From Flavobacteriales bacterium (GTDB lineage Bacteria; Bacteroidota; Bacteroidia; Flavobacteriales_F; PHOS-HE28), in contig JADJQW010000004.1 in the NCBI GenBank assembly GCA_016712535.1, positions 38,756-102,755 on the forward strand: a DNA stretch of 64,000 nt. Reading direction: 5' to 3'. The notes under the pieces are model-generated. The model was not told the origin of the DNA. It did no database searches and worked only from the letters and a program-made list of their open reading frames with translations. The position numbers and the translations under genes were made by a program. This document shows positions 1,370 to 23,062 of this stretch, piece by piece (the stretch's first letter is position 1; the number at the start of each line of letters is the position of its first letter).

Positions 1370-1732
1370 ATGATCCTGAACATTGACACGCTGCGACCAA
1401 TCACAGATATACCCTATCGCCAAGACTTTGATCGCTGGCGCGGGCGATTGAGCGACGCACAGTATGATGCCATCATGGTAGCTCTGAATGAACGCTTTGA
1501 TGGTACTGATATCCAGACCTCGAGTTGGATACCGGGAAGCGATTGGATGGGAACGGTTTACGAGCCGATCTACACCACCGCCTGTCTCCGTGACTTTAAT
1601 GAATCTGCACTTTGCTTCGGCCTGTTCGTGTGGGTCGCTGTCCAAAACCGGGAGGACGAATGGGGCTTTGGGCGATACAAATTGAAGGATATCCCAATTA
1701 GTGGGCTGACCTACTTCAGAGTACATCGATAG
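1370..1732 (+). CDS. Hypothetical protein (120 aa), no recognisable motif
   Basis: ATG-started ORF fills the gap between hsdR and the DUF262 gene on the same strand. The region is locally AT-richer. No competing ORF has better composition. Confidence 0.4.
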   Translation: MILNIDTLRPITDIPYRQDFDRWRGRLSDAQYDAIMVALNERFDGTDIQTSSWIPGSDWMGTVYEPIYTTACLRDFNESALCFGLFVWVAVQNREDEWGFGRYKLKDIPISGLTYFRVHR

Positions 1733-1737
1733 ACACA

Positions 1738-3537
1738 ATGCAAACCCAGAAATACTCCATCCAACAACCCCTCATCGAAAGCCTGCTCTCGTGGGTGAAG
1801 GAGGGCGAGATCGCCATACCGGAGATCCAGCGGCCCTTCGTCTGGGACAAGAGCAAGGTGCGCGACCTGATGGACAGCATCTACCGGGGCTATCCGGTGG
1901 GCTACATCATCACGTGGAAGAACCCGACGATCCGGTTGAAGAACGGCAACCTCGGTGAGGGCAAGAAGATCCTGATCGATGGGCAGCAGCGCATCACCGC
2001 CCTGCGCGCCGCGCTGATGGACGAGTACGTGGTGGACCAGGACTACGCCCGCATCAAGATCAAGATCGCCTTCCACCCGCTGGAGGAGCGCTTCGAGGTG
2101 CAAACGCCCATCATCCAGAAGGACAAGCTCTGGCTGCCGGACATCAGCGTGTTCTTCAGCAGCGGTTTTTCGCTGATCAAATTGAACAAGGAGTACACCG
2201 CCGCCAACCCCGGCGCGGACCCCGAGGTGGTGGAGCGCAGTTTGGGCCAGCTGGCCAACCTGGCCAAGCGGCAGATCGGCGTGATCGAGCTGAACGCCGA
2301 CCTGGATATCGAGACGGTGACGGAGATCTTCATCCGCATCAACAGCAAGGGCGTGGTGCTGAGCCAGGCGGATTTCGCCATGAGCAAGATCGCCAGCAAC
2401 GAAACGCACGGCGGCCCACTGCTGCGCAAGGCCATCGATTACTTCTGCCACCTGTGCAAGGAGCCGCAGTACTACGACCACATCAAGGAACACGACGCGG
2501 AGTTCGCCGCCACGGACCACTTCAAGGCCATGAAGTGGCTGCGCAACGAGACCGAGGACCTCTACGACCCGGACTATACCGACATGCTGCGCGTGGCGAG
2601 CGGCGTGGAGTTCGGCCGGGGCAAGATGAGCGACCTGGTGAGCCTGCTGAGCGGCCGCGATTTCGAGAAGCGCACCTTCGAAGAGAGCGTGGTGGAGCAT
2701 TCGTTCCAGCGCCTCAACGCGGGCGTAACCCGCTTCATCAACGAGAGCGACTTCAAGTTCTTCACCCTCATCCTGCGCTCCGCGGGCTTCATCCACGCCA
2801 AGCTGATGCGTAGCCAGAACGCGGTGAACTTCGCCTACCTGCTCTACCTGCACCTGCGCCGCCAGGGCATGGACCGCGGCGATGAACTGCAAAGCCTGGT
2901 GCGCCGCTGGTACGTGATGAGCATCCTCACCGAGCGGGCTACAGGCAGCTTCGAGAGCCGCTTCGACCGGGACATCAAGCGCTTGAACGAGAAGAACGCC
3001 AGCGACTACCTGAGCGAGATCGAGGCCGGTGACCTCAGTGATGCCTTCTGGAACAGCGTGCTACCCGGTCACATGGAAAGTCCGCAAGTGAGCAGTCCGT
3101 TCTACGGCGTGTACCTGGCCGCGCAAGTGAACCACAAGGACCACGGCCTCTTCAGCCGCCACCTTACCGTACACGACATGCTGCTCACACGCGGTGACAT
3201 CCACCACATCTTCCCGAAGGCGCTGCTGAAGAAGCACGGCATGGGCCGCACACAATACAACCGCCTGAGCAACCTCACCTTCATGGACCAGCCGGGCAAC
3301 ATCAAGATCGGCGACCGCACACCCGCCGCCTACTTCACCGCCGTGGCCGATAAAGTGGAGAAGGGCAAGGATGGCGTGAGCGGCTTGCGCAATGCAGCCG
3401 ACCTGAAGAAGAGCCTGCGCGAGAATTGCATCCCCGATGGCATCTTCGGCTACGACGTGAAGGACTACGACGACTTCCTGGAGGAGCGGAAGGTGCTGAT
3501 GGCGAAGAAGATCAGGGGGTATTATGAGGGGTTGTGA
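1738..3537 (+). CDS. GmrSD-type DUF262/DUF1524 protein (putative type IV modification-dependent restriction enzyme)
   Basis: N-terminal DUF262 signature (IPEIQRPFVWDKSKVRDLMDSIYRGYPVGYII and LIDGQQRITAL). C-terminal His-Me/HNH-like DUF1524 signature (GDIHHIFPKALL ... YNRLSNLTFMDQPGNIKIG). Confidence 0.85.
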   Translation: MQTQKYSIQQPLIESLLSWVKEGEIAIPEIQRPFVWDKSKVRDLMDSIYRGYPVGYIITWKNPTIRLKNGNLGEGKKILIDGQQRITALRAALMDEYVVDQDYARIKIKIAFHPLEERFEVQTPIIQKDKLWLPDISVFFSSGFSLIKLNKEYTAANPGADPEVVERSLGQLANLAKRQIGVIELNADLDIETVTEIFIRINSKGVVLSQADFAMSKIASNETHGGPLLRKAIDYFCHLCKEPQYYDHIKEHDAEFAATDHFKAMKWLRNETEDLYDPDYTDMLRVASGVEFGRGKMSDLVSLLSGRDFEKRTFEESVVEHSFQRLNAGVTRFINESDFKFFTLILRSAGFIHAKLMRSQNAVNFAYLLYLHLRRQGMDRGDELQSLVRRWYVMSILTERATGSFESRFDRDIKRLNEKNASDYLSEIEAGDLSDAFWNSVLPGHMESPQVSSPFYGVYLAAQVNHKDHGLFSRHLTVHDMLLTRGDIHHIFPKALLKKHGMGRTQYNRLSNLTFMDQPGNIKIGDRTPAAYFTAVADKVEKGKDGVSGLRNAADLKKSLRENCIPDGIFGYDVKDYDDFLEERKVLMAKKIRGYYEGL

Positions 3538-3540: not shown

Positions 3541-4788
3541 TCAACCCGCGCTGAACAAGTCGGGCTCCGCCAACTTGTAGCTCTTCTTGCGCCCCACAGG
3601 CGGTTCCACCTTGTTCAGGTGTACTAAGTGCTCGAGCAGCTTGTCGATGCGCTCGGTGGTCATACCGAGGTGCTTGGCGAGGGCCTTGTCCGTCATGGGT
3701 GTGGTCAGGGCTTTGAGCACGGCTTCCATGTCATCGGTCTCGGAATGTGCCGTGGCTGTTCCGTTGCTCTTCACTGGCGCTGCTTTCTTGGGCTTCTCGT
3801 AAGCCACCGGTGGTTCGTGCACTTCGGCCGGTTGCCCCGCGAACAATTCGTGCGCGGTTAGCGAACCGCGTTCCAGCTCCTCCATGCGCAAAGCATGCGG
3901 GTCCGCATCGGGTAGCACCAATGCACCACGCTCCACCAAGGCCCGGTTTCCCGAGCGCAGGTCGGCCTGGTGCTTTACCCACACGGGCACCCACTTCTTC
4001 TTCAGGTCTTCGGTGGCACCGGCCCATGTGCCGCCTTTGCCGTTATCGGAGCACACCACCACGGCCGCGCGGCTGAGACAGTAGACATATTTATTGCGCG
4101 ACATGGCGTTCGCCCCACTGAAGCCCGATTCGGGGTGGAAGGGACAGAGCAGCACGATGTCGCTGCGTTGGATGGCATCGCGGTACTTGTGGCTGGTAGC
4201 GGTCTTCAACAAGCTGTCGGCCACCACGCCGATCACGGTGCCGTTCGCTTCGATAGCACCGCGCATGGAAGCTTCGTCCACGCCACGGGCACCGCCCGAT
4301 ACGATGGTCCAACCTTGTTGCGCGGCTGAATGGCCCAATTGCCGAGCGAAGTGGAGATCATCTTCCGCCGCATTGCGCGAGCCGATCACCGCGAGGGCTT
4401 TCGTGTCGAGCTTCTTGCGGTCGCCTGCGCCATAGAAGATTGGCGGCGACTGGTCGCCTAATCGTTCATGTAGCAGCTTGGGGTAATCAGCCGATGAGCG
4501 CGTGATGACCCATAGACCCGCACGCTGCCATTTCTCCAGAAGCAGGCCCACTTGGAAACCCCGGTCGAGCAAGGGAAGGAGCCGTTCCAACGTAACGGCC
4601 TTGTCCTGGAACGTTGCGAGCGTATGCTTGGGATCGCCCACGAGCAGGTCGCTGGCCTTCATGCCTTGCGCGCTCAACCATGCAGCCAAGCGCGACCACT
4701 CGCCCGGTGCGAGCGGATGCACGGATCCCCCACCGGGCAGGTGCGCGGTGAGCAGCAGGGTCACATGGTCGTCCGGTCGTAGGTCCAT
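3541..4788 (-). CDS. DprA/Smf-like DNA-processing protein with C-terminal winged-helix region (ShosA-like)
   Basis: DprA Rossmann core motifs (ALAVIGSRNAAEDDLHFARQLG, WTIVSGGARGVDEASMRGAIEANGTVIGVVADSL). The ATG lies 3 nt downstream of the stop of the helicase-PRTase gene on the same strand, so this looks like an operon. Confidence 0.8.
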   Translation of the reverse strand: MDLRPDDHVTLLLTAHLPGGGSVHPLAPGEWSRLAAWLSAQGMKASDLLVGDPKHTLATFQDKAVTLERLLPLLDRGFQVGLLLEKWQRAGLWVITRSSADYPKLLHERLGDQSPPIFYGAGDRKKLDTKALAVIGSRNAAEDDLHFARQLGHSAAQQGWTIVSGGARGVDEASMRGAIEANGTVIGVVADSLLKTATSHKYRDAIQRSDIVLLCPFHPESGFSGANAMSRNKYVYCLSRAAVVVCSDNGKGGTWAGATEDLKKKWVPVWVKHQADLRSGNRALVERGALVLPDADPHALRMEELERGSLTAHELFAGQPAEVHEPPVAYEKPKKAAPVKSNGTATAHSETDDMEAVLKALTTPMTDKALAKHLGMTTERIDKLLEHLVHLNKVEPPVGRKKSYKLAEPDLFSAG

Positions 4789-4791
4789 GGG

Positions 4792-6889
4792 TCAGGCGTG
4801 CGAAGTACTGGCAAGCGCCACGGGATACACCAAGTTACTTCCGGCTTGGCGCAGTTGCGCGGCGATGATGGCAAAGGTCCAACCGGAATCGACCGCATCG
4901 TCCACCAGGAGGACAGGACCTTCCGGCAAAGGCGTGTTGATGGCGAAGGCGCCTTCCAGATTGGTGCATTGGTGGTGCTTGTTCTGCATAAGCTTCTGCG
5001 GCTCGTTGGTCTTGGTCTTCGACACGACCTGCCTGAATGGGATGCCGAGGCGTACGGCAAGTCGTTGGGCGAAGTCGGGCACCAAGTGCGGGTGGTTCAA
5101 TGAAGGTACACAGGTGAGCCATTCCGGAAACGGCTCTGGTCGCCAACGCTGGGTGATCATCTCGGTCATAGCATCCACGAGGTCGTCCTCAAACCGGTTG
5201 GCGTGCTTCTGTGCGGCCACCAGCTTTCCCCAGCCGGCGTCGCCCCAGCGACAGAGCACACGGCCCAACTCTGGTCGCAGGTGCGGCAGGAGTTTGCCCT
5301 TCTCCGATAGCCCGGTCAAGGTGCCGGGCGGCACACGGGTCGGGCATTTCAACTCGAACTCAGCATGCTTCAGGAACAAGGCGGCCTTGGAAATGGTGGT
5401 GGCATCAAGCTCGGTCCGGAAATGCTTGCTGAGGCAATTGGAGCAGCGGCCGCACGAGGTCACGCCAGTGTCGTCCAATGCGGCTTGCAGAAAGTTCATC
5501 AAGCAGCCCTTGTGTTCCAGGTACAAGTGGACCTGTTCCCATTCGCGCTTGCGTTGTGCGGTGAGCCGTTCGATTCGTTCGGTATCCAGCTTGAACGGAA
5601 CGGCGGTGCGTTTCCAGTTGAAGCCTTCCTGCACCACTGGTGCGGGCTGCTCCATCGCGAGGAACTTCAGCGCACGTTCGATCTGGCCGTAACGCAAGTT
5701 GATCACCTGTTCGATCTGCCATTGGGCCATGGCGTCGACCTTCTCCAGTAGGGGCGAGAATTCGCGCAACGGTGCTGGCGGCCGGAAAGGCGTTCTCCTG
5801 GAAGTAGGCGTGTATCTCTTCATCCTCGTCACCGGCCAGCAGTATCCCGTAGGCCTTGTCAATGGCTCGCCCGGCGCGGCCCACCTGCTGGTAGTAGGTG
5901 ATGATGGATGAGGGTGCTTGGTAGTGGATGACGAAACCGAGGTCGGGTTTGTCGAAGCCCATGCCCAAAGCCGTGGTAGCCACCAGCGCTTTGAGCGTCC
6001 CGTTCAGGAGCGCGTCCTCCAGCTGCGCACGGCGCGTGTTGGTATCCGCATCGTCCGTGGCGGCGATTCCCGCATGATAGGCTTCGGCTGTGATGCCGCA
6101 TTGTTGCAACCACTTCGCAACGCGTTCGGCGTCTTTCGTGGTGAGCGTGTAAATGATCCCGGAGCCCGGTAGCTTGGGCAGGTAGTGCGCGAGCCAGGCC
6201 AGCCGCGAAGCTTGGTCCGGCAGGCGGAGTGCATCAAGTCCGAGGCTTGTCCGCACCAGGGTGCCCCGTTCGATGGTGATATCCCCGAGTTGGTCTTGCA
6301 GGTCCTTGATCACCCGATCGTTGGCCGTAGCCGTGGTGCCCAGAACGGGGAGGTTGCCGGGCAGCCGTTTGAGGATGGAAACGATGCGTCGATAGTCCGG
6401 CCGGAAATCATGCCCCCAATCGCTGATGCAATGCGCTTCATCCACCACGAGCATGCCGATGCGCGCCGCGATGGGCAGCAGCACTTCATCCACGAAGCGT
6501 TGGTTCGCCAACCGTTCCGGGCTTATCAGGATCGCGTCCACCTCGTTCGCAAGCACTGCGGTGATCACGGCATCATGTTCTTCCTTGTTGGCACTGTTGA
6601 TCGTTACGGCCTTTATCCCCATGCGCTCCGCAGCGAGCAACTGGTTGCGCATCAACGAAAGCAGGGGACTGATGATAAGGGTGGGTCCAGCACCTTTCTC
6701 CCGCAACAGTTTCGCCCCGATGAAATAGACCGAGCTCTTGCCCCAACCCGTGCGCTGTACGACCAGCAGGCGCTTGCGATCGCGCACAAGCGCGACGATG
6801 GCTTCCAACTGGCCATCGCGGAATTCCGCGGTCGGCGTACCGACGGACTTTCGCAACAGTTGAAGTGCTTCGTCCTCGATGGTGGTCAT
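4792..6889 (-). pseudogene. RecQ-family helicase fused to a ComF-type phosphoribosyltransferase domain, interrupted by one apparent frameshift near 5780
   Basis: The N-terminal ORF (5405-6889) has RecQ motifs: TGWGKS, VVDEAHCISDWGHDFRPDY, TTATA and QQVGRAGR. It loses sense after ENAFP. The overlapping ORF (4792-5862) resumes sense at PAPLREFSPLLEK. It carries a Cys cluster (SCGRCSNC) and a PRTase end (NLEGAFAI ... VLLVDDAVDSGWT). Confidence 0.8.
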
Positions 6890-6951
6890 GAGAGCAAGAT
6901 AGCCGCCGTCTTTGGCTTGTTGTGCCGATCTTGTCGCTCGAATAACGGCCC

Positions 6952-7020
6952 ATGACCTCCCCCGCCATCGTCAACAAAGTCTGGAACTTCTGCCACACCC
7001 TGCGCGATGATGGCGTGGGC
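6952..7020 (+). repeat. Direct repeat copy A: first 69 nt of hsdM (codons 1-23), one mismatch
   Basis: atgacctcccccgccatcgtcaacaaagtctggaacttctgccacaccctgcgcgatgatggcgtgggc matches 14564-14632 apart from two differences (a>c at 6961 in codon 4, c>t at 7011 in codon 20). It opens a 30-codon ORF that stops at 7042-7044. Confidence 0.9.
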
Positions 7021-7044
7021 CTTGGTCGCGACCTCGGATGCTAG

Positions 7045-7092
7045 AAGTCAGTGATGGCGCAGAAGATCAAGGGGAATTATCAGGAGACATAA
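7045..7092 (+). pseudogene. 3-prime remnant (about 15 codons plus stop) of a second GmrSD-like gene
   Basis: The in-frame translation KSVMAQKIKGNYQET* aligns with the end of the intact gene at 3490-3537 (KVLMAKKIRGYYEGL*). By hand alignment about 30 of 36 core nucleotides are identical, with the stop codon at the equivalent position. Confidence 0.5.
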
Positions 7093-7094
7093 GA

Positions 7095-10000
7095 ATGCAA
7101 GGCACTCCAATGGGACATAGCATCACCGCCTTTTCCGGATCGTGCCTCCTTGGATCGATGTTGGTACTAGGGTGCACCGCACCCAAGCAGAGCCTGTACA
7201 GCAGGTACCTCACCGAGGGCAGGCTGGATCTGGCGGAAGCCCAAGCGGACACGACCTATGCCGCGCATTACTCCGAGCATAGATCAAGTTCGCTGCCCGC
7301 ATTCCAACGCGACAGCATTGCCGGCATCCAGTTCTACTACGATGCGGACAGGTACCGGGGGTGCATGGCTTTTGCGAAACACGAGGCTGCGGCCGATCGT
7401 GCCCGGCAACTGCTGGCCAATAGCCTTGGCAAGAACGATCCATACTACCTGGATGCGGTCATGGAGTGCGCCTACGCCCGACTCTTGCAAGGGCGCCGGG
7501 AAGAAGGGTTGGAGCTGGCCAAGGAAGTGAAGACCAAATTGTTGGCGGATCCCACGTTGGGGCGCGACAGGGTCGGCCTGTCGGACCTCTTCACCTTCTA
7601 CATGCAGGCGCAAGATGAAGCCACCGTGAAAGAGGTCGTTCGTCGTGGGCTCGCATACTACAACCCGGCGTATCGTACCGTGCCCGATACCGAAGGCAAG
7701 GCCCTCCTGGGCGCCCCGGAACTGGGGGCTTTCGACCGGGTCACCGACCTGGGCGCATACTCCCGCTTTCTCAACCACGCTGCCCTGTACAACTGGACGG
7801 TACTTGATCCATTCTGGTGCGAGCACTTCTACAAGTTCGATCGTGCCTTTGCCAAATGGTACAGTTCCACCGTTCGGGATGAGAACGTCGCGGACATCGC
7901 TTACGCGCATGCCATCGCCGGCCTTGGCAAATCTTCCGCCGCTCTGGAACTGGATAAGCGTGCGTACCTGGCCCTTGGCAAGCGCTATAAGGCGAGCAAC
8001 GTTGATTATGCCATCGGCGCAACGAATTATGCGAGCCACTATCTGGACTATGCGACGAATAATTGCGTCGCCATGCCCTATGCCTACCTCGATTCCATCT
8101 ACTCGGTCGATTGTCCGAAGATGAACGGGAGGACGAACGAAGAAAGAATGCGTTACATACAGTGCTCATGCGGGCAAGCCTTGTTGCGCACCAGTGCAGG
8201 GGAACCGGATTCCGCGCTCTCCACCTTGCGCAAGGCCGAGGTAGCTTACCACTTGATGGGCATGCGCGGTCGCACGCCGGAATCTTACGGTGGCATGTAC
8301 GCGGCGTACACGGCCACATGGTTCGAATACTGGCTTTCGACCGGCCACTATCAGCGGTGCGATTCGCTGTTGAACGTAGCCGAGCGGATACCGCTCACCT
8401 GGCGAATCATGCGTCCCAAGCTGGCTTACATGCGGGGCAAGTTGCAACTGGCGCAGGGCGATCCTGAAGCAGCAGCACGGACCCTTGCCTCCCATCGCAC
8501 GGTAACGAACACTTATCGCAATGAGGGTCTTGCAGCCTTTTCGTCGCGGAACACCCGGGACCTTTTGGGGGCCTATGAAAGTGCCGATGCGTTGGAATTG
8601 ACCGCATTGTTGGCACTGCCGGGCAAGGAGCAACAGCTCCTGTCCATTCTGGACAGCAGGAAACTGAAGGTGGCCAGCGCACAGATCCAAGCGGCACACG
8701 ATAAGCGGATGGGCTTCACGGATGAGGTCTATGATGAAGCATATGCTGACTGGCACCGCACCAAGAAGGAGATCGGTCGGATCATGACCGACAGGAGCGC
8801 TACCGCCTCCATGCTCCAACGCGCGCGCTCGCTGGAGGACACCCTCAGCGCCCAAGAGGCACTGCTCTCCCTCCTCTACCGGGAATGGATGAAGGACGTT
8901 CGGGATCAGCCTGGTTATGTAGACCGGTTCACGGTGGAAGCAGCCTTGAATCCCAAGACCGCGGTGATCGATGCACATCGCGTCCACCTGTTCGATGCCG
9001 GGCTGACCGCCTATGAACCGGCTTACTTGCTCATGGTACGCCGGAACACGGGCGTACCCACAGTCATCCGCGTTAATGATGCCGAGCGCATCGACTCCCT
9101 TATTGCCGTTGTGAATGAGCGGCACACGCAAGGCAAGGATGCCCCGGAAGCCATCCAAGCGTTGAGCGATGCGCTGGTAGCGCCCCTGAGCGCGGCCTTG
9201 GGAAAGACATCCTTGGTGTATGTATGTGGCGATGGTGCTTTGGGTCTGCTCAATTGGTCCTACCTCTGGGAAGGCTCGAAACGCTTCTGTGAGGATCGAA
9301 GCATACAGCACGTACATGGCATGCACGCGCTGCGCTACAAGGAGGTCACCGGCTATTTCGATTACGTGAGGGAGGCTGCGTTCTTCGGCGCACCAACGTA
9401 CTATTCAAGCAATGCGTCCCGCGAGGCGAATGTGACCAATGCCGCACGCATTTCGACCGCACAGGGCGAGGTGCGGGAATTCACCGGTAAGGACGGAGTG
9501 AAGGCACTGCCACATACGCAACCCGAGATAGAAGCCTCAGCTCGTATCGTGAAGGACGCGCCTCTTGTAGCCATGAACGAAAGGGCGGTAAAGACCTTCC
9601 TCGGGGTTGATGCAACGGAAGCGAACGTGCGGTCCCTTGGCAAAGTGAACCTGTTGCACATTGCCACACACGGCTTCTTCGAGCAGAATGAGGACGAGCT
9701 CATGAGCATGTACCGCTTGAATGATTCGCTCTCCTCGTTCAGCCGCGACCCCCTATTGCGATCAGGTTTGTTGCTTGCAGGCAGCGGTGATTACCTCGCG
9801 AACGGAACCCGTTCTGCTGCGCTTGATGATGGTTTGCTGAGCGCGGCCGAGATCGCTGATATGGATCTGTCCAAGACGGAGCTGGTGGTCCTGAGCGCCT
9901 GCCAGTCCGGCCAAGGCACCGTGGCCACATCGGACGGAATTGATGGGCTGCAGAGTGCGCTGTTCATCGTCGGCGCGAAAGCGGTGATGGTATCCTATTG

Positions 10001-10172
10001 GAAGGTGGATGATAAATTCACCACCATGTTCATGCAGGAGTTCTATCGGCGATGGAGCGGCAAGGAACGCCATGCGTTCGAGGCGCTGCGCAGCACGCAG
10101 CGGCACTTCGCCGCGATGCCGGAATACGCTTCCCCCCGCTATTGGGCTTCCTTCAATATCGTGGCCCGATGA
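7095..10172 (+). CDS. CHAT-domain (caspase-like) protease with long helical/TPR-like N-terminal region and lipoprotein-type signal peptide
   Basis: C-terminal CHAT dyad context: VNLLHIATHGFF (His) and ELVVLSACQSGQG (Cys). The N-terminus MQGTPMGHSITAFSGSCLLGSMLVLGC ends in a lipobox-like VLGC. An in-frame alternative start exists at 7038, but it would put an acidic extension in front of the signal. Confidence 0.8.
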   Translation: MQGTPMGHSITAFSGSCLLGSMLVLGCTAPKQSLYSRYLTEGRLDLAEAQADTTYAAHYSEHRSSSLPAFQRDSIAGIQFYYDADRYRGCMAFAKHEAAADRARQLLANSLGKNDPYYLDAVMECAYARLLQGRREEGLELAKEVKTKLLADPTLGRDRVGLSDLFTFYMQAQDEATVKEVVRRGLAYYNPAYRTVPDTEGKALLGAPELGAFDRVTDLGAYSRFLNHAALYNWTVLDPFWCEHFYKFDRAFAKWYSSTVRDENVADIAYAHAIAGLGKSSAALELDKRAYLALGKRYKASNVDYAIGATNYASHYLDYATNNCVAMPYAYLDSIYSVDCPKMNGRTNEERMRYIQCSCGQALLRTSAGEPDSALSTLRKAEVAYHLMGMRGRTPESYGGMYAAYTATWFEYWLSTGHYQRCDSLLNVAERIPLTWRIMRPKLAYMRGKLQLAQGDPEAAARTLASHRTVTNTYRNEGLAAFSSRNTRDLLGAYESADALELTALLALPGKEQQLLSILDSRKLKVASAQIQAAHDKRMGFTDEVYDEAYADWHRTKKEIGRIMTDRSATASMLQRARSLEDTLSAQEALLSLLYREWMKDVRDQPGYVDRFTVEAALNPKTAVIDAHRVHLFDAGLTAYEPAYLLMVRRNTGVPTVIRVNDAERIDSLIAVVNERHTQGKDAPEAIQALSDALVAPLSAALGKTSLVYVCGDGALGLLNWSYLWEGSKRFCEDRSIQHVHGMHALRYKEVTGYFDYVREAAFFGAPTYYSSNASREANVTNAARISTAQGEVREFTGKDGVKALPHTQPEIEASARIVKDAPLVAMNERAVKTFLGVDATEANVRSLGKVNLLHIATHGFFEQNEDELMSMYRLNDSLSSFSRDPLLRSGLLLAGSGDYLANGTRSAALDDGLLSAAEIADMDLSKTELVVLSACQSGQGTVATSDGIDGLQSALFIVGAKAVMVSYWKVDDKFTTMFMQEFYRRWSGKERHAFEALRSTQRHFAAMPEYASPRYWASFNIVAR

Positions 10173-11035
10173 ACGCCCGCACAGTTGGCAGGACATCCCT
10201 TCGCTCGTTGAATGCCCTAGGGCAATTGCAGCGGATCGGGTTGTGCATGGCCGTATTCCTCCTTCCGTGGACGGCGTCTGCCCAGGTCGAAGCGGCGCGG
10301 GTTGAGCTACCGCCTCCATTCACACGGGCACAGGAGAAAGCGGTGGAGCTCCGCATAGTTCAAGACGGTGCTACTTCAGAGACCTCCATTTTGCATGCGT
10401 TGCGGACGGCTCTCGGCAAGGACTTACCCCGACAGGCGGCGATCACATTGGTCGCCAAGGATGGAGTGCAACCTTTCGTCCTTGATCGTGTGGACCGGGT
10501 CAAACCTGGTAAGGGAGTGCAGTACACCGTGGTCCGAGGGGATAGTCAGTTGAAGTTCTCTCGTCCTGAGCAGTTGAATGTCTTCTGGAGCGACAGCTTG
10601 GTCGTGGTCGATTCCTTGGTTTTGGACTTTGCGGGACTACGTGGTGCTGGGCCGGGGCAGTTGTATATCACCGTGCAGAACGATGAGCAGATGGTGATGC
10701 CCTCCATCAGGAAGCGAAAGAGTGACCCTGCCCTGCATGTGCTCCGGGATCCTTGTTCCTCCTCGGGTCCTGGTGAACAGGACACAACCTGCGTGCGCAA
10801 CATTCGCCTGACCAGCAGCACAGAGCCAAGGCTGAATGGTTCCGCTCGTTTCATCTTCCTTAGCGCTTACGACCGCACACGGTTGGTCGCCTTTGCCACC
10901 GCGATCAATGAGGCTTCCGGGTTGGACCGGGATGCGCTGGTCGACCGGGTAGAAGCCTTCACCAAGACATACTATGGTCCTCCCATCCGCAGTGATGTTG
11001 AGCGTTTGCTGATAGGTGCAGGTCTTATCCATTGA
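10169..11035 (+). CDS. Secreted hypothetical protein (288 aa)
   Basis: The ATG overlaps the CHAT stop (ATGA at 10169-10172). Signal-peptide-like N-terminus (RIGLCMAVFLLPWTASAQ). No known motif recognised. Confidence 0.55.
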   Translation: MNARTVGRTSLRSLNALGQLQRIGLCMAVFLLPWTASAQVEAARVELPPPFTRAQEKAVELRIVQDGATSETSILHALRTALGKDLPRQAAITLVAKDGVQPFVLDRVDRVKPGKGVQYTVVRGDSQLKFSRPEQLNVFWSDSLVVVDSLVLDFAGLRGAGPGQLYITVQNDEQMVMPSIRKRKSDPALHVLRDPCSSSGPGEQDTTCVRNIRLTSSTEPRLNGSARFIFLSAYDRTRLVAFATAINEASGLDRDALVDRVEAFTKTYYGPPIRSDVERLLIGAGLIH

Positions 11036-12528
11036 GCGTGGAAAAGCTGATCCACTTCCTTGGGTTCTTCCTGATCGTCGGCGTCGTCCTCATCGGGCTG
11101 GCTGGTTTCATCCGGCGGTCACAGCGGAATGCGATAACGTTCACATTAGTGTGGTCTTTGGCCCTGACCACGATCGTAGTGTATTTGCAGTCGTTCCTGC
11201 CGCTGCGGTTCGGTGAGCAGATCAGTTCCTTGGAGTTCGGTGGATTTGTATTGGAAGGCATACACGATTCGCGTTCGAAGGCTGAGAAGTTCCTTGAGCG
11301 CAATTGCACGCTGATCGATGTATCCCAGGACCTGCGATTGATACCAGCGCCCAACCAGATCGACAGCGGCGCATCCGTTGCTGTTACCGATCGGGAGAAG
11401 CTCGCTTCGTTCTTGGAGTACCTGGCGCCTGACACGGCCTTGTTCGACATGGTCATCGTCGATGTGCTTTTCGACATTCCTACAGCGCACGACAAGCCCT
11501 TACAGGCGGCACTAATTGACTTGGCCAAGAAGGGAAAGTTGGCTTTGGCGCACGACGAGCAACTGTGCCGTGATGTATCCTTCTACCACAACGATGAACT
11601 CATCGGCACCTTTGGAGAAGTGGGGGAAAGGGAACAGGATGGCCTCTATTACAAGCATACACTGCTTCGGCGTTCGGTCAAGGGCGATAGGTTGTTGTCG
11701 CTGAGCCTGCCTTACCGCGCGTACACACGCATGAACAAGGTGGAGCGCATCGACCGTTTCAGTGGGCTGTTGGGTTCTGCCCGGGAGCATGGGCCACATG
11801 TGGACCGGTTCATTCGGACCTGGTTCAATCCGATACTACTGGGAGGCACCCTGCCAGAATCAGAAGGCCTTCTGAAGAGGCTGGGGCATGAACTAGGCTT
11901 CGGAAGCGACACCTATTCGCTATCGCATCAGCACGAACTGCAGGCTTTGCGAGGTCTGAACGCCGCCACGCCTCTCGGTCGTTGCACCAACGAGATCATG
12001 GAGGATGAAGGGGCACCATTCCTGCGCGCGATGCTCAAGAAGCGCATGGAAGAATCAGGCCCTCACGTGATCGTCATTGGCAATTTCCTCGATGGTGAAC
12101 GCGACGTCCACCAAACGGCGCATGGAGCCATGCACGGTTCCGCTATCGTCATCGGGGTTCTCCATGAATTGTTGGAAGGAGGGCACCGAGCCTCTTGGGG
12201 CTTCCTGTTGGTTGTTTGGGCCTGTCTTGCGGGTATCACATGGGCGCTGCTTAAGCAATGCAAGACGAATAGCGATCAAAGATCCGTTTCTCATCCCGCC
12301 CCAAGGAGGAGGATGCTCGCGACCATCGGCCACCTTCTATTCGTGGAAGAGAAGCACTACTGGTTCCTGTTCTTGGCCTTTGTCTTGGTGGAGATCTTGT
12401 TCCTGCGCATCGTGAACCTGCTGTCCTTGGTCCTGGTCTTCGCCATCATGGAGGTCGTGTTCCGCGCTATGCTTCAGCCTATCAGTTCATCCGATCAAGT
12501 GAGTACATCGAACAAGTCGACACCATGA
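11032..12528 (+). CDS. Membrane protein with CHASE2-like topology (N-terminal TM, about 350-aa external domain, C-terminal TM cluster)
   Basis: The TTG start overlaps the upstream stop (TTGA). N-terminal TM is LIHFLGFFLIVGVVLIGLAGFI. The segment LFDMVIVDVLFDIPTAHDKPLQAALIDLAKKGKLALA resembles the conserved CHASE2 core. C-terminal TMs are WGFLLVVWACLAGITWALL and YWFLFLAFVLVEILFLRIVNLLSLVLVFAIM. Confidence 0.55.
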   Translation: MSVEKLIHFLGFFLIVGVVLIGLAGFIRRSQRNAITFTLVWSLALTTIVVYLQSFLPLRFGEQISSLEFGGFVLEGIHDSRSKAEKFLERNCTLIDVSQDLRLIPAPNQIDSGASVAVTDREKLASFLEYLAPDTALFDMVIVDVLFDIPTAHDKPLQAALIDLAKKGKLALAHDEQLCRDVSFYHNDELIGTFGEVGEREQDGLYYKHTLLRRSVKGDRLLSLSLPYRAYTRMNKVERIDRFSGLLGSAREHGPHVDRFIRTWFNPILLGGTLPESEGLLKRLGHELGFGSDTYSLSHQHELQALRGLNAATPLGRCTNEIMEDEGAPFLRAMLKKRMEESGPHVIVIGNFLDGERDVHQTAHGAMHGSAIVIGVLHELLEGGHRASWGFLLVVWACLAGITWALLKQCKTNSDQRSVSHPAPRRRMLATIGHLLFVEEKHYWFLFLAFVLVEILFLRIVNLLSLVLVFAIMEVVFRAMLQPISSSDQVSTSNKSTP

Positions 12529-12598
12529 CCTCCACCGCCATCGTCAACAAAGTCTGGAACTTCTGCCACACCCTGCGCGATGATGGCGTGGGCTACGG
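12525..12598 (+). repeat. Direct repeat copy B: first 74 nt of hsdM, one mismatch
   Basis: Identical to 14564-14637 except gat/gac in codon 20. Its ATGA supplies the stop codon of the CHASE2-like gene. It opens a 26-codon ORF that stops at 12603-12605. Confidence 0.9.
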
Positions 12599-12607
12599 CC
12601 GCTGACT

Positions 12608-12922
12608 ATGCCCAAGCGCACCGAACACCGTCGAGACCCAAGTGATGTGGAGATCACGCGTTTCGAGCTGATGCGCATTTTCGATGGCGACGAGGAGTGG
12701 CTGCGCACGCTGGAGCACAATTTCTTCTGCGGCACCTGCCATGTGCCGAACCGCCGCCTGATCAATTACCGGGTGATGGTGAACGATCTGTTCGACATCG
12801 CCCTTCAAGGCACCTGCAATGGTTGCCACACCATCGCCGCCCGCTATGTGGAGACCGGCGAGGATCCAGAGAAGGTGAAGCGGATAAAGGCGGTGCTGCG
12901 GGAACGGAAGAAGGCCCGCTGA
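12608..12922 (+). CDS. Hypothetical Cys-rich protein (104 aa; CGTC ... CNGC)
   Basis: The ATG lies 2 nt after the stop of the truncated hsdM leader ORF. Two CxxC pairs suggest a zinc-ribbon-like fold. No family recognised. Confidence 0.4.
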   Translation: MPKRTEHRRDPSDVEITRFELMRIFDGDEEWLRTLEHNFFCGTCHVPNRRLINYRVMVNDLFDIALQGTCNGCHTIAARYVETGEDPEKVKRIKAVLRERKKAR

Positions 12923-12932
12923 ACGACGGTCG

Positions 12933-12995
12933 GCACTATACTGGACATGCAGCAAATGCCGGATCCGCACATTTATGGCACGCGCAGTATAGTGC
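12933..12995. terminator. Inverted repeat between convergent genes (11-bp arms gcactatactg / cagtatagtgc)
   Basis: Perfect 11-bp arms at 12933-12943 and 12985-12995, lying between the 3-prime ends of 12608-12922 (+) and 13002-13448 (-). The loop is long and there is no T-tract, so terminator function is only a guess. Confidence 0.25.
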
Positions 12996-13001
12996 GGTGC
13001 C

Positions 13002-13448
13002 CTACTTACCCTCCAGTGGGAGTTCCGGCGCAAAGGCCTTCACATCCATCAGCGGAAGCAATGCGCCGTGCAAGGGCGTGCCCTTGAACACGCCGAACAT
13101 GATGCCGCGCGTGGTGCTGATGGCAATGCCGTTGAGCGTGGCCAGCAGATCGGGCGGGATCACCGCGATGCCCTGCTCGTTCTTGTAGACGAGCGTGTTG
13201 AAGTCGGCCACGGAGAAGGATACCGTTGCACTGAGCTTACCCACGGGCACGGCGCTCTTCTGGGTAACGATGTTAACGGTCACGTTGCACAGCACCCAGC
13301 CGTTCTGCTCATGCACGGCGTTCTCAAGGTTCACGCTGAAGTTCAATCCCGAGGCCGCTTCATCCTGTGGAGGCACCGGATGGATGTGCGACTCGTTCAG
13401 CTGAAGGAGGTTCAGGCTGTACTTGTAGGGAGGCTTGGCGTCGCTCAT
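13002..13448 (-). CDS. SecB-like putative chaperone (148 aa)
   Basis: The start ATG overlaps the stop of the HTH gene (TGATG). By eye the sequence can be threaded on E. coli SecB. For example, YSLNLLQLNESHIHPVPP aligns with FQIQRIYTKDISFEAPNAP, NVTVNIVT with RVTVTA, and LLPLMDVKAF with LAPVNFDAL. Confidence 0.45.
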   Translation of the reverse strand: MSDAKPPYKYSLNLLQLNESHIHPVPPQDEAASGLNFSVNLENAVHEQNGWVLCNVTVNIVTQKSAVPVGKLSATVSFSVADFNTLVYKNEQGIAVIPPDLLATLNGIAISTTRGIMFGVFKGTPLHGALLPLMDVKAFAPELPLEGK

Positions 13449-13924
13449 CAGGCAAAGCAGGGTTGCTTCTGTCCATAGTGGTACAGTGGTTCGCTCACCA
13501 TGGGCACAGCCCCGGCAGCGTTGGAGGAACGGCTCACGAAAGCCATTTCGCCCATGGCCACAGTACGGCGCTCTTGCGAGAGGGCAGGTGCTTGCACGCT
13601 GACCGTAGTGGAGAACACCACCCTCTCTTCCTCGGGGCGCAGCAGGTCGGCAACGCTCATACCCAGCGCATGGCCGATGTCCACTAGTGTATCCAAGGTG
13701 AAGTTGTGCCCGCCGCTCAGCCACTTGGTGACCATGGAGGAACCCTTCAAGCCACACGCCTCGGCCAGTTCCTTCTTCTGCATGCGCAGTTCTTCGAGGC
13801 GATCTGCGATGCGCACGGCTGCACGCATCTTGATCGACACCTTCTCCTGCTGCTGGGGCGTGATGCGTGCCAGCAGTTCGTCCAGGATGGCGCTGCGATA
13901 AGGCTCAGGTGTCTTGCTCATCAT
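13448..13924 (-). CDS. XRE-family helix-turn-helix protein with about 60-aa low-complexity C-terminal extension (putative antitoxin)
   Basis: HTH_XRE-like core (LRMQKKELAEACGLKGSSMVTKWLSGGHNFTLDTLVDIGHALGMSVADLL). Overlaps the upstream gene by 20 nt. Confidence 0.75.
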   Translation of the reverse strand: MMSKTPEPYRSAILDELLARITPQQQEKVSIKMRAAVRIADRLEELRMQKKELAEACGLKGSSMVTKWLSGGHNFTLDTLVDIGHALGMSVADLLRPEEERVVFSTTVSVQAPALSQERRTVAMGEMAFVSRSSNAAGAVPMVSEPLYHYGQKQPCFA

Positions 13925-14405
13925 CCAATTCTAATGTGAGGTCACCGGTCCATTCCATCTCGTCGGATGTCCAACCGATCTCACGGTTCTGCATTTTCTC
14001 TTTCATGGCCTTGGAGATGGCGATCATCTCTTCGGCTGCTTGTTTCAACTTCGGGTCATCCTGCCAGGCACGCACCAACTTCGGACCACCTGCCCCCAGC
14101 AGGAGTATCGAGTTCCCGTATCGTATGCCATAGGCGCGTAAGGTGGCGGTCACATCATCGGAGACAGCTACGACCAAGTCGCCCGGCAAGCCTTCGCCAA
14201 TTCGGAAAAGGTCCGTGCGCAAGCCGGTCTGCTGACCCATGGTGCGCAGCTTGGCGACCAGATTCTCGGTCTCTTTGGGGTATTGGGTTGCGCATTCCTT
14301 CAGCAAGGTGTCGAAGAGGCTGGCACTTCCATCGGTCCTCACAAGCGTGTAAACCGTTGCCCGTCTCCCCGAAAGTTGAACGTACTTGACGATCCGATAG
14401 TTCAT
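13905..14405 (-). CDS. Putative toxin component (Gp49/HigB-like pattern, weak)
   Basis: First gene of a three-gene minus-strand operon. The segment LRAYGIRYGNSILLLGAGGPK resembles the conserved R-x-Y ... ivLL-g-f-KK strand of Gp49/RelE-superfamily toxins. The assignment is tentative. Confidence 0.4.
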   Translation of the reverse strand: MNYRIVKYVQLSGRRATVYTLVRTDGSASLFDTLLKECATQYPKETENLVAKLRTMGQQTGLRTDLFRIGEGLPGDLVVAVSDDVTATLRAYGIRYGNSILLLGAGGPKLVRAWQDDPKLKQAAEEMIAISKAMKEKMQNREIGWTSDEMEWTGDLTLELDDEQDT

Positions 14406-14563
14406 CTAAAGCCGAATTTTGGCCCCAGAAGCGAACCGTCCTCGCCAACGATTTCACCCTTAGGTGCATTTTGCGGGTTCAAACCTACAACATTTGACTT
14501 GGTCGGCCCAAGCTTATAATCCGTCGATTTTCCCGTCAAGGTCATAATCCCTAAGCTAGCAGA

Positions 14564-14637
14564 ATGACCTCCACCGCCATCGTCAACAAAGTCTGGAACT
14601 TCTGCCACACCCTGCGCGATGACGGCGTGGGCTACGG
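14564..14637 (+). repeat. Direct repeat copy C (the functional 5-prime end of hsdM)
   Basis: Reference copy for repeats A (6952-7020) and B (12525-12598). Confidence 0.9.
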
Positions 14638-16042
14638 TGATTACCTCGAGCAGCTCACCTATTTGCTGTTCCTGAAGATGGCTGATGAGTACAGCAAGCC
14701 GCCCTACAAGCGCGACACCAAAGTGCCCACCGGCTTCGACTGGCAGAGTCTGCGCGGCAAGAGCGGCGCCGAGCTGGAGAGCCATTACGTGAAGCTGCTG
14801 GACGAGCTGGGCAAGAAGACCGGCATGCTGGGCGACATCTTCGTGAAGGCCCAGAACAAGATCACCGACCCGGCCAAGCTCCACAAGCTGATCCAGCTGA
14901 TCGACGGCGAGAGCTGGGTGCTGCTGGGCGCCGATGTGAAGGGCGATATCTACGAGGGACTGTTGCAGAAGAACGCCGAGGACACGAAGAGCGGTGCCGG
15001 GCAATACTTCACGCCGCGTCCGCTGATCCGGGCCATGGTGGAGTGCGTGCGTCCACTGCCCGAGAAGACCATCGCCGACCCGGCCTGCGGCACCGGCGGC
15101 TTTTTCCTCGCGGCCTACGACCACCTGACCAACCCGAAGAACTTCAAGCTGAACAAGGACCAGCTGAAGTTCCTGAAGTACGAGACCTTCCACGGCTGGG
15201 AGATCGTCACCAGCACGGCGCGCCTGTGCCTGATGAACCTCTTCCTGCACAACGTGGGCGACATGGACCACGAGGCGGACATCACCCGCGATGACAGCTT
15301 GCGCGCGGCGCCTGCGAAGAAGTTCGACTACGTGCTCACCAACCCGCCCTTCGGCAAGAAGAGCAGCGTGACGGTGACTAACGACGAGGGCACGGAAAAG
15401 CGCGAGGCCCTCACCTACAACCGCCAGGACTTCTGGGCCACCACGAGCAACAAGCAGCTCAACTTCGTGCAGCACATCTGCAGCATCTTGAAACCGGGCG
15501 GCACCGCCGCCGTGGTGCTGCCGGACAATGTGCTCTTCGAAGGTGGCGCCGGCGAAACCGTGCGCAAGCAATTGCTGCGCACCACGGAGCTGCACACCAT
15601 CCTGCGTCTGCCCACAGGCCTCTTCTATGCACAGGGCGTGAAGGCGAACGTGCTCTTCTTCGAGAACAAGCCCGGCGCCAAGACCCCCTGGACCAAGGAC
15701 GTATGGATCTACGACTACCGCACCAACATCAAGCACACGCTGAAGACCGACCCGCTCCAGTTCGAAGACCTCACGGAATTCATCAAGTGCTACAACCCTG
15801 CAGACCGTCACAAGCGCAAGGCGACATGGAGCGACAAGTCACCGGAAGGCCGCTGGCGCAAGTACAGCTACGACGAGATCATGACCCGCGATAAGGCCAG
15901 CCTGGACATCTTCTGGCTGAAGGACGACAGCTTGGAGGACAGTGCCAACCTGCCTGAGCCGGGGGTGCTGGCGGCGGAGATCGTGCAAGACCTAGAGGCG
16001 GCGTTGAAGGAGTTCAGGGCAATCGCAGATGACCTCCACTAG
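14564..16042 (+). CDS. hsdM: Type I restriction-modification system DNA methyltransferase subunit M
   Basis: HsdM N-terminal domain (IVNKVWNFCHTLRDDGVGYGDYLEQLTYLLFLKM). SAM motif I (IADPACGTGGFF). Catalytic motif IV (VLTNPPFGKK). Confidence 0.93.
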   Translation: MTSTAIVNKVWNFCHTLRDDGVGYGDYLEQLTYLLFLKMADEYSKPPYKRDTKVPTGFDWQSLRGKSGAELESHYVKLLDELGKKTGMLGDIFVKAQNKITDPAKLHKLIQLIDGESWVLLGADVKGDIYEGLLQKNAEDTKSGAGQYFTPRPLIRAMVECVRPLPEKTIADPACGTGGFFLAAYDHLTNPKNFKLNKDQLKFLKYETFHGWEIVTSTARLCLMNLFLHNVGDMDHEADITRDDSLRAAPAKKFDYVLTNPPFGKKSSVTVTNDEGTEKREALTYNRQDFWATTSNKQLNFVQHICSILKPGGTAAVVLPDNVLFEGGAGETVRKQLLRTTELHTILRLPTGLFYAQGVKANVLFFENKPGAKTPWTKDVWIYDYRTNIKHTLKTDPLQFEDLTEFIKCYNPADRHKRKATWSDKSPEGRWRKYSYDEIMTRDKASLDIFWLKDDSLEDSANLPEPGVLAAEIVQDLEAALKEFRAIADDLH

Positions 16043-16095
16043 TGATAGCACACTCCCAGTGTTCGCGGCTTTGGCATATTGTCATGCGCGCTACT

Positions 16096-16842
16096 TCAGC
16101 CTTCAGCCCCGCCGAACATCTGCCCCATCCCCCGCTTCGCACGGCGTCCGAGCACTTCTGATGTTTCCACCACCTTCCCCTTCACCAGCCACGAGACCCC
16201 GAAGGCAAGCAGCATGACGGTCTCCGGCCAGAAGATGCTTTGCTCCAGGACGAAGCCCGCGATGCCTGCCCAGATCAGGCAGCACGCGATCACGATCCCG
16301 CATGCGCGGTGCAAGGCATTGCGCCGCTGCTTCGATGGGTCCAGCTCTTTGTCGGTGATGGGAAAGAGGAAGTACGACATGTAGGCGAAGCTGATGAAGA
16401 GCGTGGCCGCGCCGATGAAGTGGGCGGTGCCCATGTAGTCTTCCCACCAGGTCAGCGGCGGGTAGTGGCCCTCGACCTCGGTAGGGAAGAAGGCGAGCAC
16501 GAGCGCGCCGATTCCCGCGATGCGCGCGGACAGCCGGTCCTTCCAGCCCGTGGGGTTGTCGTAGCCATCGTAGGTGATCAGGAAGATCCCGAGCGCGACC
16601 ACGATCCCGATGAAGACCGCTTCGGCCCCGGTGTGGTAGTATCCGCTGATACTCTCAAGCAGTGCCCAGCGATCGGCTGCGCCATTCACCGGCCGCCAGC
16701 CTGCGGCAATGAACACCATCAGCGGCAGGGCAATCCCGAGGATGCCGAGCAGTTGGCGGTGCGCATTGCTGGAGAGGTCGTCTTCATTCTCCTCGGGGAT
16801 GAAATCGCTCCGTAGTCGTCGGGTGCTCCTGATCTGTTCCAT
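16096..16842 (-). CDS. Polytopic integral membrane protein (DUF998-like impression only)
   Basis: ATG start and six or so hydrophobic helices (LGILGIALPLMVFIAAGW, AVFIGIVVALGIFLITY, IAGIGALVLAFF, FIGAATLFISFAYMSYFLF, ACGIVIACCLIWAGIAGFVL). Confidence 0.6.
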   Translation of the reverse strand: MEQIRSTRRLRSDFIPEENEDDLSSNAHRQLLGILGIALPLMVFIAAGWRPVNGAADRWALLESISGYYHTGAEAVFIGIVVALGIFLITYDGYDNPTGWKDRLSARIAGIGALVLAFFPTEVEGHYPPLTWWEDYMGTAHFIGAATLFISFAYMSYFLFPITDKELDPSKQRRNALHRACGIVIACCLIWAGIAGFVLEQSIFWPETVMLLAFGVSWLVKGKVVETSEVLGRRAKRGMGQMFGGAEG

Positions 16843-16866
16843 GGTGCGATGTCGGAGGTGCCTGCT

Positions 16867-18066: not shown

Positions 18067-18070
18067 GGCC

Positions 18071-18550: not shown

Positions 18551-18864
18551 GGGGCTGGATTTGCACCAGCGAACCTATCGGCCCCTACTCTCCCCTGTTA
18601 CCGGTGTTTACACGGGTACCGGGGGGCTTTTTGCACGGGTATGTTCTCCGGCCGAAAGCATTGCCCAAGGCGCGCATCACCTGCTGTACCCCCTCACGCG
18701 GGACTCCTTTCGTTCGTCACTCCGGAGCGCGGGAGCTGCGAAGCAGCTGGAACCCGCGCATCCGGAGTCTCACCCAAGCCATCACGCGAATGCAGATTCG
18801 TGAGACGCCGGATGGCCGATTCCGCCTTCGTCGCTGCGATCGCCCGGCCTCCGGCGGGACGGTA

Positions 18865-19734: not shown

Positions 19735-19765
19735 GCGGCAAATATCGCTGGCTCAAGGCCGAGCA

Positions 19766-22990: not shown

Positions 22991-23062
22991 GGCCCCATAG
23001 TTCAATGGATAGAATAGGAGTTTCCTAAACTCTTGATCCAGGTTCGACTCCTGGTGGGGTCA
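22991..23062 (+). tRNA. tRNA-Arg (anticodon CCT)
   Basis: A hand-folded cloverleaf fits. Acceptor ggcccca/tggggtc, anticodon stem ggagt/actct with loop ttCCTaa, T arm ccagg-ttcgact-cctgg. CCA is not encoded. Confidence 0.9.

Follow-up and report, generated by a model that had tools for sequence, protein, structure and literature searches.

What role could three tightly packed genes for exported proteins play inside a type I restriction-modification (R-M) locus? The question is raised by a 64,000-nucleotide stretch of contig JADJQW010000004.1 (positions 38,756 to 102,755) from the Flavobacteriales bacterium assembly GCA_016712535.1, the whole of which we call the window. At positions 7095-12528 it carries, all on the plus strand, a CHAT-type gene, a gene for a secreted protein and a CHASE2-type gene, which we named g1, g2 and g3. 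An earlier note on this DNA had put the trio forward as its best candidate for an undescribed defence system. Our results led us to propose that the trio encodes one extracytoplasmic signalling-and-proteolysis module and that its CHAT version serves defence against phages or mobile elements, a reading whose immune part is drawn only from the R-M embedding and whose chances we judge to be evenly balanced.

The three open reading frames (ORFs) are intact, and conserved counterparts at 30-89% identity occur in more than ten independent contigs. In an ATGA, the stop of g1 overlaps the start of g2, as first read. The g2 stop at 11033-11035 is overlapped by TTG 11032, and a second 4-nt overlap (TTGA) had been proposed there, but it stands only if this codon is the g3 start: the M/V-[D/E]-K start position used by all g3 homologs corresponds to GTG 11038, 2 nt past the g2 stop, and TTG 11032 is probably not the true start. 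Whichever start applies, translational coupling of g2 and g3 is likely to be tight. In comparison with the closest relative, the locus L001, the ratio of nonsynonymous to synonymous substitution rates (dN/dS) was 0.13 for g1, 0.27 for g2 and 0.25 for g3 at a dS of ~0.5-0.6, which places all three genes under purifying selection; on such comparative evidence we take them to be real and functional protein-coding genes. Scans for sigma-70 promoters and terminators stayed at chance level, the sigma-70 consensus being unsuited to a Bacteroidota-like host.

Residues 686-1023 of the g1 product match Pfam CHAT (PF12770) at E=2.2e-51, with 175.5 bits against a cut-off of 24. Its His859 (LLHIATHG) and Cys936 (LSAC.SGQG) are invariant across five homologs of 49-89% identity, in agreement with the catalytic dyad that had been read from the sequence alone. 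Because of this match and this invariance, and because the Peptidase_C14 proteases found beside g2-g3 in some relatives keep the dyad too, we argue that g1 is an active protease. The same five homologs share the lipobox cysteine, Cys27; the window has LVLG/C27 and the family variants (LVLG/C, LLAG/C, LLFG/C, MITA/C and LLVG/C, the slash preceding the cysteine) were scored as fitting the lipobox pattern [LVI][ASTVIL][GAS]C. A signal-peptide-like N-terminus is present in every g1 homolog compared, so the lipobox-like start proposed for the gene (LVLGC) holds as well, and the n-region of the window's signal peptide is devoid of K/R if translation begins at 7095. The region that precedes the CHAT domain is ~660 residues long and not ~800 as first estimated. 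It contains seven more cysteines invariant in the five-homolog alignment, which fit an oxidising, extracytoplasmic location and, in a family whose members are as little as 49% identical, suggest disulfides. A TPR-like character had also been attributed to this region; the assignment was tried and dropped as unsupported, the only matches being TPR_4 at E=0.058 and kinesin light chain at E=0.18. Sequence and profile searches of the PDB with g1 returned nothing significant, Csx29 included, and profile-profile comparisons of the g1 N-terminus with the C14 N-terminus, and of g1 with g2, did not detect a shared adaptor domain.

The g2 product was correctly described as a protein with a cleavable signal peptide and no recognisable family. 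All 14 aligned family members have a signal peptide with a cleavage site between A and Q, and the mature N-terminus predicted for the window protein, QVEAARVELP, is conserved. The motif FW.D..V.D.L, which includes D142 and D148, is invariant in the 14, and two conserved halves are separated by a variable, low-confidence linker (residues ~172-203). Searches of Pfam, NCBIfam, PADLOC and the PDB gave no match. Homology to FecR or LysM proteins was not detected in the Pfam scan and is retained as an analogy only, and a gasdermin identity was rejected because g2 has a signal peptide and no match was found. By homology search, g2 defines a new protein family of 14 clusters at 50% identity.

The g3 product (residues are numbered on the 496-residue GTG-start protein) is predicted, from TM and charge analysis and the secondary structure of its AlphaFold2 model, to consist of two N-terminal transmembrane (TM) helices, a net-acidic domain of ~330 residues, three further TM helices and a short tail. 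Its K/R-rich loops, with RRSQR following TM1 and another behind TM3, all fall on one side of the membrane, in which the nine homologs are consistent, and since this would be the cytoplasmic side the large domain is predicted to be periplasmic. The external domain and the three C-terminal helices of the first topology reading therefore stand, while its single N-terminal helix becomes two, the second of which is one beyond canonical CHASE2 proteins. The likeness to CHASE2 likewise holds at one level and not at another: six of the nine family members match Pfam CHASE2 (PF05226; best E=1.8e-7), and so does a paralogous g3' in the locus L015 (8.5e-5), while the window protein itself stays below the gathering threshold (17.7 bits, E=0.0028, against 26.3 bits). 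At the family level, by these profile matches, g3 is a divergent CHASE2 protein. All nine homologs terminate 9-19 residues past the last TM helix and have no cytoplasmic output domain, and their C-terminal TM helices contain the invariant polar residues E438, H440, Y441, W442, R457, N460 and E472. The suggested search of AlphaFold2 models, run for g2 and g3, was of little help. The g2 model (six-sequence alignment) reached a predicted local distance difference test (pLDDT) score of 63 and the g3 model (nine sequences) 64, and Foldseek returned nothing below E=1e-3 for g2 against the PDB and BFVD or for g3 against the PDB. The C-terminal domain of MtxA, the top Foldseek hit for g2, was rejected at a TM-score of 0.22-0.32, and the g3 profile had no match among PDB sequences, hence no reference CHASE2 structure for comparison.

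Together, the conserved export or membrane signals of g1, g2 and g3 uphold the view that all three products act outside the cytoplasm, and the predicted envelope location of the module is well supported.

Next, we asked whether the three genes belong together. In a set of 5.8 billion proteins, the g3 family forms nine clusters at 90% identity. An exhaustive HMMER search of 1.84 billion proteins, used because a word-indexed profile search had missed known distant members, gave the 14 g2 clusters, with lengths of 182-286 residues (mostly about 230-286), too short for an extra fused domain. Loci with g2-g3 were found twice in 185,579 species genomes, both times in Flavobacteriales metagenome-assembled genomes, and a search of 241 million metagenome records yielded five. 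Without exception, g2 directly neighbours g3 at a spacing of 0-4 nt, with a gene for a secreted caspase-fold protease beside the pair. The protease gene is placed in one of three ways: CHAT-g2-g3; g2-g3 plus a C14 gene in convergent orientation and a gene for an OmpA-domain protein; and g2'-g3'-C14'. A CHAT lipoprotein of ~1020 residues is encoded upstream of g2-g3 in lineages A (window and L001), B (L007/8, L017 and L023/24) and C (L010-14). Lineage D (L002-6, L009, L015, L016 and L020-22) instead has a convergent Peptidase_C14 gene (~410 residues) and an OmpA-domain peptidoglycan-binding protein, and its Peptidase_C14 partners have a signal peptide and an intact His/Cys dyad. A constant g2-g3 pair beside an interchangeable CHAT or C14 protease is a strong argument for a three-part functional unit. 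L015 (~18151-21431) and L016 (~12664-15577), both from Flavobacteriales metagenome-assembled genomes, have a second, diverged module encoded on one strand, whose products are a secreted protein like g2, another CHASE2-like protein and a Peptidase_C14 with a signal peptide. It lies ~7.5 kb from the first, with type IX secretion system (T9SS) cargo, VIT-VWA and exosortase genes between the two.

The location of the CHAT-type trio is what points to defence. In the window the gene order is HsdR C-terminus, a 120-residue ORF, a GmrSD_N protein, PsyrA/PsyrT on the minus strand, leader and trio, leader and a 2-kb cassette, and hsdM, so the trio does lie between restriction genes as first stated, and the hsdM-leader repeats said to bound it are there: three copies, starting at 6952, 12525 and 14564, begin exactly at the hsdM ATG and run for 69-85 nt. 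Copy 1 is 97% identical to the real hsdM start over 69 nt (blastn), and copy 2, whose ATG overlaps the g3 stop, 98.6% over 74 nt. L001 shows the same leader-flanked design, with copies at 1656-1714, at 5912-5996 and from 11488, and its trio cassette adjoins GmrSD_N and Fic genes. The order in L007 is hsdR-DUF4357-PDDEXK_4-trio-hsdM; there and in L008 the g3 stop overlaps the ATG of the real hsdM, and a truncated leader stands straight after g3 in L017 (~6037-6090), L023 (~6051-6104) and L024 (~5600-5653). In two lineages of 45-50% identity, the CHAT-type trio thus stands immediately before the 5' end of hsdM, leader-flanked on both sides in lineage A. R-M embedding was found in the window, L001 and L007, and not in lineages C and D. 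In published work, a position within R-M, BREX or Hma loci serves to predict that a gene has a defence function (10.1101/2024.01.29.577857; PMC12255303).

Cassette and host gene have different histories, since hsdM is 91% identical in DNA between the window and L007 and the trio only ~66% over the aligning segments; across loci, hsdM identity is 86-91% and that of the trio cassettes there only ~66%. The stacked direct repeats correspond to the first 59-85 nt of hsdM from its ATG, and each copy follows one inserted cassette. No integrase gene is present inside the leader-array cassettes, and the hsdM leader was not found when viral contigs were searched for it. From the arrangement of these repeats, the 5' end of hsdM looks like the site of a cassette array based on homology. 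On a plasmid of Gemmobacter aquarius (NZ_CP028920.1, L025) an annotated type I R-M locus at 5762-13473 has the order hsdR-hsdS-DUF262-hsdM. The DUF262 stop overlaps the hsdM ATG by 4 nt, the same junction geometry as that of g3 and hsdM, and the slot 5' of this related hsdM therefore takes other cargo too.

We propose the following mechanism. The g3 protein would be a CHASE2-family inner-membrane receptor that lost, or never had, its cytoplasmic output domain, and g2 its secreted periplasmic partner, the two forming an envelope sensor. As a periplasm-facing lipoprotein, g1 would provide the output through its CHAT protease domain. A g2-g3 complex may keep the protease inactive or hold it in an inactive position until an envelope cue, such as a breach caused by phage, damage to peptidoglycan or a foreign protein in the periplasm, releases or activates g1; the active protease would then cut periplasmic or membrane targets, possibly g2 or g3 themselves, with a block of entry or death of the infected cell as the outcome. 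We base this division of labour on three analogies from the literature. In canonical CHASE2 kinase operons, such as the Burkholderia BiofilmReg operon, a gene for a secreted LysM/FecR periplasmic protein comes before the kinase gene (PMC5192318); Sinorhizobium meliloti CyaD1 without CHASE2 (pCyaD1-deltaCHASE2) makes cyclic AMP (cAMP) constitutively (PMC5498481); and caspase-CHASE2 fusions exist, namely the Trichodesmium metacaspase-CHASE2 and EACC2-caspase proteins with a C-terminal CHASE2 (PMC3501461, PMC8195603). The CHAT-type module would travel as a cassette in a defence-gene-collecting slot just 5' of hsdM in one type I R-M family. Because of the R-M embedding, defence is in our judgement the most likely role of the CHAT version. 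More tentatively, as a possibility that we would not yet expect to be borne out, the trio could represent the first extracytoplasmic caspase-type immune pathway, with both sensing and execution outside the cytoplasm, spread by an undescribed array mechanism in which homologous recombination at the hsdM leader, with no integrase of its own, would add, stack and exchange defence cassettes.

Several observations weigh against a defence role. None of g1, g2 and g3 has a match in PADLOC-DB v2.0.0 at E<=0.01, and no g3 relatives were found on the plasmids or viral contigs searched. The CHASE2 score of the window g3 lies under the Pfam gathering threshold, and the poor models of g2 and g3 (pLDDT 63-64) yielded no fold match and so bear out neither a fold for g2 nor the CHASE2 fold of g3. 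The island itself is partly decayed, since no hsdS was found by hsdM and psyrT is frameshifted, so that hitch-hiking of the trio is conceivable. Lineage C loci (L010-L014) are short contigs without R-M genes, with only a DUF2779 nuclease and HSP20. In lineage D, L002-L006 and L020-L021 sit between LptE/sigma-54 activator/MiaB-like and SurA/LptC/SecG genes, in neighbourhoods that also hold GroEL and outer-membrane protein (OMP) beta-barrel genes, an ordinary envelope setting. A conserved housekeeping envelope locus is what the earlier note had seen as speaking against its own proposal, and this is in part what we found: the distant C14-type modules lie among envelope genes, and the CHAT-type ones in R-M loci.

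The explanation that gains most from these points is a non-immune one, which we regard as a genuine possibility although not a probable one. It holds that a CHASE2 receptor and its periplasmic partner steer a protease on the cell's own envelope proteins, for instance in outer-membrane or peptidoglycan homeostasis, surface-protein maturation, or biofilm or gliding adaptation, and that the presence in R-M loci is hitch-hiking in a recombination hotspot. The lineage D setting among LptE, SurA, LptC, SecG and OMP beta-barrel genes, with a peptidoglycan-binding OmpA-domain protein in the module, fits this well, as do the two paralogous modules beside T9SS cargo and exosortase genes in one Flavobacteriales genome and the fact that characterised CHASE2 operons control biofilm formation or cAMP signalling (PMC5192318; PMC5498481). 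On the other hand, the extreme rarity and patchy spread of the genes (14 clusters at 50% identity; two of 185,579 species genomes) are atypical of housekeeping functions. Moreover, two lineages only 45-50% identical have the CHAT version in the same slot 5' of hsdM, the array of lineage A carries defence genes, and even the C14-type locus L015 has an hsdR-like gene ~8 kb upstream.

A protease-activated, membrane-disrupting suicide device is in our view unlikely. Here g1 would only activate the effector, g3 or g2, with a gasdermin-like logic in which cutting of the periplasmic domain of g3, or of the g2 linker, frees TM helices or a fragment that depolarises the inner membrane. The g3 protein does combine the lack of an output domain with invariant charged or polar residues in its C-terminal TM helices, g2 has its variable linker between conserved halves, and the protease swaps between CHAT and C14 while g2-g3 stays constant. 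Nevertheless, no similarity to gasdermins or to any pore-former was found with Pfam or Foldseek, no cleavage site is predictable, and the conserved TM residues may be a general CHASE2 feature.

Still less probable is an outward-facing weapon or shield, in which a surface-exposed CHAT lipoprotein degrades foreign proteins (phage receptor-binding proteins, pili or effectors of competitors, predator factors) and g2 and g3 help in its export or anchoring. The host is Bacteroidota-like and has a T9SS, many lipoproteins of Bacteroidota are surface-exposed, and the protease is Cys-rich and carries a lipid-anchor signal. However, surface lipoproteins of Bacteroidota are marked by an acidic lipoprotein export signal, and the residues that follow the lipobox cysteine in the g1 family (TAPKQS, VNMKPY or INMKPY) contain none; in addition, the Pfam scan found no T9SS C-terminal domain in g1, and g3 is predicted to be an inner-membrane protein. 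That the trio is no functional unit at all, but chance or decaying ORFs left in a degenerating restriction island, as the damaged neighbours (psyrT frameshift, orphan hsdM leaders, hsdS not found) might suggest, is refuted by the intact ORFs, their 30-89% identity over more than ten contigs, the dN/dS values of 0.13-0.27 and the invariant catalytic and signal residues, and we give it practically no credence.

Features of the window discussed in the text (coordinates are window positions; empty cells, not given)
Feature	Position	Strand	Remarks
Unassigned 120-residue ORF	1370-1732		directly after hsdR
GmrSD-like gene	1738-3537		599-residue open ORF; GmrSD_N (DUF262) domain, PADLOC HEC-05-like matches
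PsyrTA (RqlHI-type) toxin-antitoxin defence pair	3541-6889	minus	PsyrA intact (PADLOC 1e-127)
hsdM-leader copy 1	6952-7036	plus	orphan first ~69-85 nt of hsdM, 29-codon remnant ORF; left boundary of trio cassette
g1	7038/7095-10172	plus	1025-residue CHAT lipoprotein (7095 start)
g2	10169-11035	plus	288-residue protein with signal peptide
g3	11032-12528	plus	membrane protein, 496-498 residues; probable start GTG 11038
hsdM-leader copy 2	12525-12598	plus	right boundary of trio cassette, left boundary of second cassette
Second cassette	12597-14563		between leader copies 2 and 3
Cys-rich 104-residue ORF	12608-12922	plus	second cassette
Hairpin, 26-nt arms	12933-12995		second cassette, after the 104-residue ORF
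ORF with PADLOC PDC-M64C-like C-terminal part	13002-13757	minus	E=1e-11; overlaps HTH_3 ORF
HTH_3 ORF	13448-13924	minus	second cassette
166-residue ORF	13905-14405	minus	second cassette
hsdM-leader copy 3	14564-14648	plus	start of intact hsdM, first about 72-85 nt
hsdM	14564-16042	plus	intact type I R-M methylase; Pfam N6_Mtase 1.9e-69, HsdM_N; context gene
Unassigned ORFs and Exo_endo_phos protein	16042-18150		in place of hsdS; Exo_endo_phos at 16867-18123, minus
Giant T9SS cargo, 3107 residues	25135-34458		21 SprB repeats, CHU_C tail
PorP/SprF gene	34463-35380		between the two giant T9SS cargo genes
Giant T9SS cargo, 2871 residues	35478-44093		CHU_C tail
OmpA/PD40 protein	45018-47219		after the second giant cargo gene

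The neighbours of the trio are in varied condition. What had been called a GmrSD scar upstream is an open reading frame of 599 codons and not an obvious scar, although a C-terminal nuclease domain was not detected in its protein. PsyrT (PADLOC 3e-182) is divided between two ORFs that overlap, 5405-6889 and 4792-5862, and a frameshift near 5751 follows from their matching successive parts of the profile (positions 1-372 and 373-686). In the second cassette, the HTH_3 ORF and the PDC-M64C-like ORF are possibly one frameshifted gene. Downstream of hsdM, no hsdS (Methylase_S) was detected at 16042-18150; perhaps the type I system is incomplete here, or its hsdS is located before position 1 of the window. 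Exo_endo_phos genes occur near the module both in the window and in L009, and when tested the two were not homologous. The GC content is 0.56-0.61 in the first ~16 kb, which hold the restriction island, and 0.63-0.66 elsewhere in the window, and a tRNA-Arg(CCT) gene lies at 22991-23063, ~7 kb beyond hsdM. The SprB-repeat and CHU_C T9SS proteins and the PorP/SprF gene, as in gliding- or adhesin-type loci, indicate a Bacteroidota-like, diderm host.

If the proposed role of the trio is right, its meaning would reach beyond this locus. To our knowledge, the characterised bacterial caspase-fold immune proteases (Craspase, gasdermin-activating proteases, type IV Thoeris) are all cytoplasmic, and a periplasmic, lipid-anchored CHAT protease coupled to a CHASE2 receptor would show that immunity based on proteases can work at the envelope. 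CHASE2 is a widespread sensor domain whose ligand is not known (PMC5192318), for which the trio would offer a tractable minimal system of three genes with a protease read-out. The stacked hsdM leaders, in turn, point to a simple, homology-based way of collecting defence cassettes in one type I R-M family.

Finally, we compared the trio with known systems. It resembles CHASE2 receptors of the BiofilmReg and CyaD1 type in that a gene for a secreted protein stands immediately upstream of that for the CHASE2 membrane protein, and in the placement of CHASE2 between an N-terminal TM region and three C-terminal TM helices. It differs from them in that g3 lacks a kinase, cyclase or GGDEF output but has one extra N-terminal TM helix, in that g2 has no detectable FecR/LysM homology, and in that the sole enzymatic partner is a protease predicted to be extracytoplasmic. 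As in the caspase-CHASE2 fusions, a caspase-fold protease and CHASE2 are joined in one functional unit; in the fusions, though, the protease is covalently linked and predicted to be cytoplasmic, while that of the trio is separate, exported and on CHASE2's side of the membrane, and a third, secreted component, g2, is obligatory.

Among immune systems, the likeness to the type III-E TPR-CHAT protease noted earlier is borne out for the protease domain only. Like Craspase (gRAMP/Cas7-11 with the TPR-CHAT protein Csx29, which cleaves Csx30), the trio has a CHAT protease with a long non-catalytic N-terminal region, but g1 carries an export and lipidation signal, has no sequence match to Csx29 and no demonstrated TPR, and CRISPR or cas genes turned up neither in the ~7 kb flanking the trio on each side nor among the other window ORFs scanned. 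With gasdermin-protease operons and type IV Thoeris it shares a caspase-fold protease beside a ~280-residue partner in defence islands, CHAT and C14 being interchangeable; those systems are cytoplasmic, whereas g2 starts with a cleavable signal peptide and is not similar to gasdermins, and no TIR or nucleotide-signalling gene accompanies the trio. Since these defining features were tested and are absent, the trio is not a Craspase, gasdermin or type IV Thoeris system. It is closest in setting to other genes embedded in R-M loci (DarTG2 in the EPEC RRDM island, PrrC, PADLOC HEC/PDC), being likewise inserted between hsd genes and probably co-transcribed with them (PMC12255303; 10.1101/2024.01.29.577857). 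Its slot, unlike theirs, is the 5' end of hsdM, with an hsdM-leader copy after each cassette, and whereas their cargo is cytoplasmic and targets nucleic acids or NAD, the trio is an envelope module. The supposition that no defence system like it had been described agrees with what we found in PADLOC and in the papers searched. The CHAT domain, the CHASE2 domain (at the family level) and the caspase-CHASE2 association, through fusion proteins, are already known; what is undescribed in these sources is a CHASE2 protein without an output domain that is joined by an obligatory secreted partner and by a caspase-fold protease that is exported, and the presence of such a module as R-M cargo.

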